DNA of 1,766 nt from Escherichia coli. GTDB taxonomy: Bacteria; Pseudomonadota; Gammaproteobacteria; Enterobacterales; Enterobacteriaceae. Location of the stretch: the NCBI RefSeq assembly GCF_003334255.1, contig NZ_QOWU01000150.1; one strand, written 5' to 3'. The position numbers were made by a program, and so were the translations under genes. The notes beneath the pieces are model-generated. The model worked only from the letters and a program-made list of their open reading frames with translations. It had not been told where the DNA came from and made no database searches. Below are positions 877-1,245 of this stretch, piece after piece. Position 1 is the stretch's first letter. The number at the start of each line of letters is the position of its first letter.

Positions 877-1245
877 ATGGCAACAAAAGAAGAAAATCAG
901 AAACGTCTTCGTGAACTGGCTGGTCTGCTGGGGCGCGAGGCGGATATGTCGGGGAGTGCTGCGGATATCGCACAGCGTGTGGCAGAGTGGGAAGAGGAGG
1001 TTTGCGCCTCGGAAAATGAAATCGCAGATGTTGATGATACCGTTCATGAGCAGGCATGCAGGCACACCGGTGAGGATGACGTTGGTATTCTGGAACGTAT
1101 CAGGCTTCTGAAGTGTTTTTACCTGTGCGGTGTTGACGATGAAACAGGTGAGCCTGTTGAGCATGTTGATGCTGGCAGAGTAATTCTGATGCCCCCCTCA
1201 GTGGCAAAAGACATGGTCAGGAGCGGAATGGCCGTTTATGCGTGA
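877..1245 (+). CDS. FI: DNA-packaging / head-assembly protein, lambda gpFI-like (122 aa)
   Basis: ATG at 877 has a proper SD and gives MATKEENQKRLRELAGLLGRE..., which parallels the lambda gpFI N-terminus (MTKDEL-ARLRSLGEQL... AELKEE) as recalled. The C-terminal tail (VILMPPSVAKDMVRSGMAVYA) resembles the lambda FI C-terminus (FVLPGTAFRVSAGVAAEMTERGLA). The middle is acidic and divergent. Position between E and FII fits lambda synteny. Stop TGA at 1243-1245. The ORF-track start at 829 (GTG) has no RBS and would begin inside the hairpin, so 877 is preferred. Confidence 0.75.
   Translation: MATKEENQKRLRELAGLLGREADMSGSAADIAQRVAEWEEEVCASENEIADVDDTVHEQACRHTGEDDVGILERIRLLKCFYLCGVDDETGEPVEHVDAGRVILMPPSVAKDMVRSGMAVYA

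Follow-up and report, generated by a model that had tools for sequence, protein, structure and literature searches.

The product of gene FI of phage lambda, gpFI, is reportedly a two-domain protein with a C-domain that binds gpE. This two-domain design with a flexible linker is already established, as is the mosaicism of lambdoid head genes. One published account (PMC4856287, which cites Popovic et al. 2012, Catalano & Tomka 1995 and Murialdo et al.) describes gpFI as an assembly chaperone that helps the terminase-DNA complex to associate with the prohead, and relates a proposal that it works while attached to the gpE lattice. From our analysis of an FI gene of an E. coli prophage, we found that nt 877-1245 of the window (the whole stretch of DNA analyzed, 1766 nt) are an ordinary, already annotated lambda-type FI. 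We consider it highly likely (probability of roughly 0.88) that the gene is the orthologue of lambda gpFI in a prophage similar to phage 21, and that its divergence comes from a fast-drifting linker together with a recombined cassette of linker and C-domain, the cassette being the main cause.

The window carries four features, all on the + strand: the 3' part of the major capsid gene E (nt 1-825; the last 274 codons, of the 21 type, with matches to PHROG major head proteins at E=7.7e-133), the gene for the DNA-packaging chaperone FI (877-1245), the gene FII for head-tail joining or head closure (1238-1591; 117 codons; PHROG 82 'head closure Hc1', E=5.9e-51), and the 5' part of the tail gene Z (1606-1766; the first 53 codons), which was called by identity to its relatives (100% amino acid identity to Z of PhiR5_1). 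The window is found at 100% identity in several E. coli chromosomes (e.g., JE86-ST05), and in JE86-ST05 the block belongs to a complete lambdoid module in the order Nu1-A-W-B-C-D-E-FI-FII-Z-U-V-G-T-H and onward. In RefSeq, E and Z of the 100%-identical chromosomes are named 'major capsid protein' and 'phage tail protein', and FI is present at 100% nucleotide identity as WP_000201508.1, 'gpFI: DNA-packaging protein FI'. The first 40 nt of the window (1-40) also have an exact 40-nt match in the 254-kb genome of Aeromonas phage AP1 (MT713136, 250357-250396), where no feature is annotated.

The FI reading frame extends from the ATG at 877 to the TGA stop at 1243-1245 and yields a product of 122 aa. 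A Shine-Dalgarno motif, GGGAG, read from the sequence at 866-870 (+), lies 6 nt 5' of the start codon, and the phage 21 record has a ribosome-binding site annotated at the equivalent position. The start of FII overlaps the stop of FI by 8 nt (ATGCGTGA). Between E and FI, a pattern scan found a terminator-like hairpin (833-860, +), whose 9-bp stem (833-853) is rich in G+C and leads into seven consecutive T; its folding energy is -21.8 kcal/mol. Hairpins with T-rich tails, built on different stems, occupy the same place in lambda (where the loop is UUCG), 21, PhiR12_1, HK225 and an E. coli prophage locus found through protein P0113 (L012), and the HK225 record annotates its hairpin as a rho-independent terminator. 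An upstream in-frame start, GTG-829, would extend FI to 138 aa (through 829-876), and we preferred ATG-877 because the longer reading frame crosses the hairpin and has no ribosome-binding site. Some relatives in the databases carry N-terminal extensions, probably through misannotated start codons (e.g., P0027, a protein of 138 aa with an extension of 11 aa). An antisense ORF of 230 aa (472-1164, - strand), which stretches across the E-FI intergenic region with the end of E on one side and most of FI on the other, was rejected as spurious because it is closed in PhiR5_1, 21 and R12, where the longest stop-free stretch on the minus strand at this place is 131-155 aa; most likely it is open by chance. 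Rfam searches of the window returned only sub-threshold snoRNA noise and no hidden RNA.

Membership of the FI family is supported by profile matches, gene context and predicted architecture. The product matches the Pfam model PF14000 (Packaging_FI) over its full length (residues 3-119 on model positions 1-131, E=1.3e-15) and PHROG 92, 'DNA packaging chaperone FI' (1-121 on 1-127 of 128, E=1.4e-41), and a search against NCBIfam matched no model. The ORF order and the JE86-ST05 prophage place the gene between E and FII in a lambda-like head module, and the predicted architecture (helical N-domain, flexible linker and a C-domain with the fold of 2LSM) is that of FI. For the function, the chaperone activity and the binding of gpE are carried over from lambda, based on 29% identity to lambda FI and on fold similarity. 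By this analogy, FI of the window would act as in lambda, i.e., as a catalytic helper and not as a component of the virion; its C-domain would bind the gpE shell of the prohead, and the protein would help the terminase-DNA complex to join the prohead.

The first-pass annotation, made from the sequence alone, had singled out FI as the most divergent gene of an otherwise well-conserved E-FI-FII-Z block, and our comparisons bear this out. The amino acid identity to lambda is 61.8% for E, 28.7% for FI, 70.4% for FII and 71.7% for Z. The divergence of FI is not peculiar to the comparison with lambda, because the same pattern is found against phage 21 (E 95% [94.9%], FI 58%, FII 86%, Z 70%) and PhiR12_1 (E 94%, FI 51%, FII 96%, Z 96%). 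A direct BLASTP alignment of FI with lambda FI, proposed as a check, gave 37 identities in 129 positions (E=2e-9), which is below the identity of the neighboring genes. The neighbors had been described as aligning to lambda nearly residue for residue; they are indeed colinear, but their identity is just 61-72%. The ends of FI had likewise been described as conserved, which holds for the N-terminal segment (44% to lambda) but not for the sequence of the C-terminal part (22%, with 21% in the linker), where the fold and a few residues are kept. The divergent unit is, therefore, the linker plus the C-domain and not the linker alone. The N-domain, by comparison, is 80-90% identical in amino acids to those of the 21, R12 and L012 types. 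Semi-global nucleotide identities of FI to lambda, Stx2k and HK225 (75-80%) were alignment artefacts and were disregarded.

To describe the architecture of the protein, we used an alignment of 36 full-length FI homologues, from which column entropy was calculated per zone, and an AlphaFold2 model built on this alignment (mean pLDDT 72.9 and pTM 0.40, i.e., moderate confidence). The N-terminal helical domain (aa 1-41, or about 1-46; nt 877-999, +) is near-invariant across aa 1-41, with column entropies of 0.4-0.9 bits, and the model predicts helices at 4-18 and 28-50 with pLDDT of 82-87. The acidic linker (aa 42-68; nt 1000-1080, +) is predicted to be disordered, with pLDDT below 50 for aa 47-68. 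It lies in the acidic stretch EWEEEVCASENEIADVDDTVHEQACRHTGEDD (aa 37-68), for which a disorder prediction had been proposed and whose position at nt 985-1080 had been given correctly. Aa 42-70 are hypervariable (2.2-2.6 bits), and among the 36 homologues the linker varies in length from 23 to 43 aa and is unalignable between types. Every one of these linkers is nevertheless net acidic (3-11 D/E versus 0-3 K/R), so the acidic character is a property of the family and the sequence is not; of the possibility that the acidic region is conserved across lambdoid FI proteins, the composition (36 of 36) stands while sequence and length do not. The C-terminal domain (aa 69-122; nt 1081-1242, +) is moderately conserved over aa 71-122 (about 1.7 bits) and is predicted at 73-121 to be beta-rich with one helix. 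Foldseek ranks 2LSM first among PDB entries for it (entry title 'solution structure of gpFI C-terminal domain'), with a probability of 1.00, a target-normalised TM of 0.78, 23% identity and E=7e-3, and the profile of the 36 homologues, which includes lambda FI itself, matches 2LSM over positions 70-127 (E=2.9e-16); a single-sequence search of the PDB with FI did not find 2LSM. The predicted layout is thus a conserved two-helix N-domain, a disordered acidic linker and a small beta-rich C-domain, in agreement with the two domains and flexible linker that the first-pass annotation had given for lambda FI.

The four cysteines counted in the first-pass annotation are present (aa 43, 61, 80 and 84). 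C61 is Tyr in PhiR5_1 and other close relatives, Cys80 is common to the 21- and R12-type alleles, and Cys84 is shared with the 21 type only. A metal or redox motif was considered and rejected, given the variable C61, the lack of cysteines in lambda FI and the lack of a CxxC motif, and the four cysteines do not look meaningful from these comparisons.

We then compared the window with its relatives at the nucleotide level, calculating its identity to phage 21 and to PhiR12_1 in a sliding frame of 60 nt. Up to about nt 990 the identity to both is mostly 82-100%, except that nt 211-360 are 58-75% identical to PhiR12_1 and nt 841-960 are 73-77% identical to phage 21; over 991-1230 it falls to 42-70%, and from 1231, where FII starts, it returns to 88-100%. 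In round figures, the identity to close relatives drops from about 90-100% to about 45-55% over nt ~990-1230. The drop lies inside FI, which a per-gene identity plot had been proposed to examine. With megablast, no match to a 21-like phage continues beyond nt 998. Across 55 IMG/VR loci whose FI is of the 21 type, identity to the window is 54-56% over the segment 1000-1237, compared with mostly 87-94% for E and mostly 93-98% for FII and Z, the FII values lying mostly at 94-97%. The nucleotide profile, megablast matches, IMG/VR loci and synonymous divergence together define a mosaic cassette of linker and C-domain (nt 990-1237, +), with a left joint at about nt 990-1000, at the boundary of N-domain and linker, and a right joint at about nt 1231-1240, at the FI/FII junction.

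The cassette of the window is a discrete allele. Of 5426 complete E. coli genomes, 107 carry it, each copy being at least 95% identical, and there are no intermediates; its flanks are present in 1952 E. coli genomes. A hybrid that joins the 21 and lambda types is found at L012. There, A-E and the N-domain of FI are of the 21 type (72-95% to phage 21; E 95%, FI N-domain 85%), and the part that follows is of the lambda type (to lambda, FI linker 82%, C-domain 91%, FII 97%, Z 99%), so that the junction of the head and tail modules falls inside FI. From these comparisons, the linker plus the C-domain is a horizontally exchanged recombination cassette, and alleles of it that diverged long ago have entered head-tail blocks whose other parts are 90-100% identical. 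A mosaic recombination boundary had been raised as one possibility for FI and a divergent linker between conserved ends as another; both earlier readings are right, with recombination as the main cause of the divergence.

The synonymous sites speak to whether the gene could have diverged in place, i.e., whether a dispensable or weakly constrained chaperone has simply evolved faster than its neighbors without any recombination. By Nei-Gojobori estimates, dS between the window and phage 21 is 0.33 in E, 0.39 in FII, 0.84 in the N-domain of FI and 3.1 in its C-domain, and against PhiR12_1 the respective values are 0.31, 0.06, 0.20 and 1.06; the C-domain thus exceeds E and FII by 8-10 times against phage 21 and by 3-18 times against PhiR12_1. 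Relaxed constraint on a protein cannot raise dS, which contradicts divergence in place, and, since evolution in place cannot carry a gene several-fold past the neutral rate of its neighbors, the linker and C-domain must have a separate, older history. The idea does draw on real signs of weak constraint, as the linker is predicted to be disordered and as, of the codons that differ between FI of the window and FI of PhiR5_1, 6 are non-synonymous (all in aa 57-76) and 4 synonymous, compared with 7 and 37 in E (Fisher p=0.008 for FI versus E). These signs are, however, set against the sharp edges at about 990 and 1231, the discreteness of the alleles without intermediates and the lambda-type cassette (82-91% to lambda) in the 21-type head block of L012, as well as against a dN/dS of 0.10 for the C-domain versus phage 21 (range 0.1-0.6), which indicates that the C-domain is under purifying selection. 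We therefore regard divergence in place as very improbable. The linker drifts fast because it is constrained only in its composition (acidic, polar), and this relaxed constraint adds to the divergence of FI; recombination is needed besides it to account for the size of the identity drop.

The type of the C-domain does not track the type of E. Four C-domain types (window, 21, R12 and lambda-like), with pairwise amino acid identities of 19-63%, adjoin E proteins that are 94-96% identical, which is unlike what a tightly allele-specific contact of the C-domain with gpE would predict. With four alleles beside near-identical E proteins, any contact with gpE must tolerate large change or use conserved surfaces. 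The decoupling could possibly reflect conserved contact surfaces, a weak and tolerant contact, or non-functional prophage combinations, as many of the sampled prophages may be defective and some of the FI/E combinations non-functional. No clear co-variation of the variable patch of E (aa ~145-176) with the C-domain type of FI was seen in 8 phages. The other hypervariable gene of the head module is Nu1, the small terminase subunit (L008 5633-6181, with equivalents in L009-L012 and the IMG/VR loci L015-L094), with 29-64% amino acid identity between types, whereas A, W and B are 88-99% identical among 21-like phages. Co-adaptation of Nu1 and FI was considered and rejected, since the two are unlinked across the 37 IMG/VR loci that hold both: five Nu1 types accompany the window-type FI, and three the 21-type FI.

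It is conceivable that selection and not neutral shuffling keeps the FI alleles diverse, for example through escape from a host defence or from a satellite that senses or exploits FI, or through co-adaptation with another variable packaging gene such as Nu1. The presence of at least four deeply divergent, discrete alleles of linker and C-domain in near-identical head blocks would fit such a role, as would the hypervariability shared by FI and Nu1, but with the types of the two genes unlinked, no PADLOC defence model matching the FI product and the C-domain giving no sign of positive selection (dN/dS 0.1-0.6), ordinary lambdoid mosaicism accounts for the data, and we hold selected diversity to be improbable. 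A wider reading, which we find somewhat less improbable but still unlikely, would make FI a recurrent recombination hotspot with its joint exactly at the boundary of N-domain and linker, where the N-domain travels with the head genes and the linker and C-domain are swapped freely, in some cases along with FII and Z; four deeply divergent C-domain alleles would then serve near-identical gpE or, alternatively, selection by host defence or satellite interference would keep the alleles diverse. The preferred reading, an orthologue of gpFI with a drifting linker and a recombined cassette, has little significance beyond correct annotation, since FI is already named in RefSeq, although it offers a clean worked example of an intragenic recombination joint at a domain boundary. 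What is mildly new is this position of the joint and the decoupling of the FI C-domain alleles from the type of E. The decoupling could inform how gpFI recognises proheads; if the FI/E combinations are functional, gpE is recognised by the C-domain of gpFI without allele specificity, and the current model would have to be qualified.

Several observations concern the genes on either side of FI. Over nt ~1560-1766, from the end of FII into Z, the window is only about 65-78% identical to phage 21, compared with about 90% before, and its Z belongs with the 177-aa type seen in PhiR5_1 and PhiR12_1 and not with the 192-aa type of lambda and 21; this region is a further mosaic joint. In E, the patch at 211-360 (aa ~145-176 of the full-length protein) is 58-75% identical in nucleotides to PhiR12_1, with the gene otherwise at 90-100%, and looks like a small mosaic or a variable surface patch. 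At 742-747 (aa 316-317 of the full-length protein), E of the window reads PSCEF where seven other lambdoid E proteins, including those of lambda and HK225, read PAREF. This two-residue change, which includes Arg to Cys, falls at positions otherwise invariant among the seven E proteins compared, and the E. coli genomes with DNA 100% identical to the window carry it too.

Among known systems, lambda gpFI (PF14000; C-domain 2LSM) is like FI of the window in lying between E and FII, in its three-part layout (the predicted C-domain of the window superposes on 2LSM) and in its acidic linker (10 D/E versus 1 K/R in lambda and 9 versus 1 in the window). It differs in sequence, with 29% amino acid identity overall, and has no cysteines compared with the four of the window; FI of the window is 10 aa shorter because its linker is shorter, and the 8-nt overlap of FI and FII corresponds to an 11-nt gap in lambda. 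FI of phage 21 ('ORF1' in M81255; DNA packaging protein in OL657228) has 124 aa to the 122 aa of the window and the same overlap with FII, and the head genes A-E around it are 91-99% identical. Its N-domain is 80% identical to that of the window and its C-domain belongs to the same family (63%, with Cys80 and Cys84 conserved), but its linker is unalignable (17%) and the synonymous sites of its C-domain are saturated (dS 3.1 versus 0.33 in E). Phage 21 FI carries another allele of the cassette, one that diverged anciently. FI of PhiR5_1 (PV340545) is the same allele as that of the window and WP_000201508.1, with 95% amino acid identity, and differs from the window at six residues, all in aa 57-76 and including C61Y.
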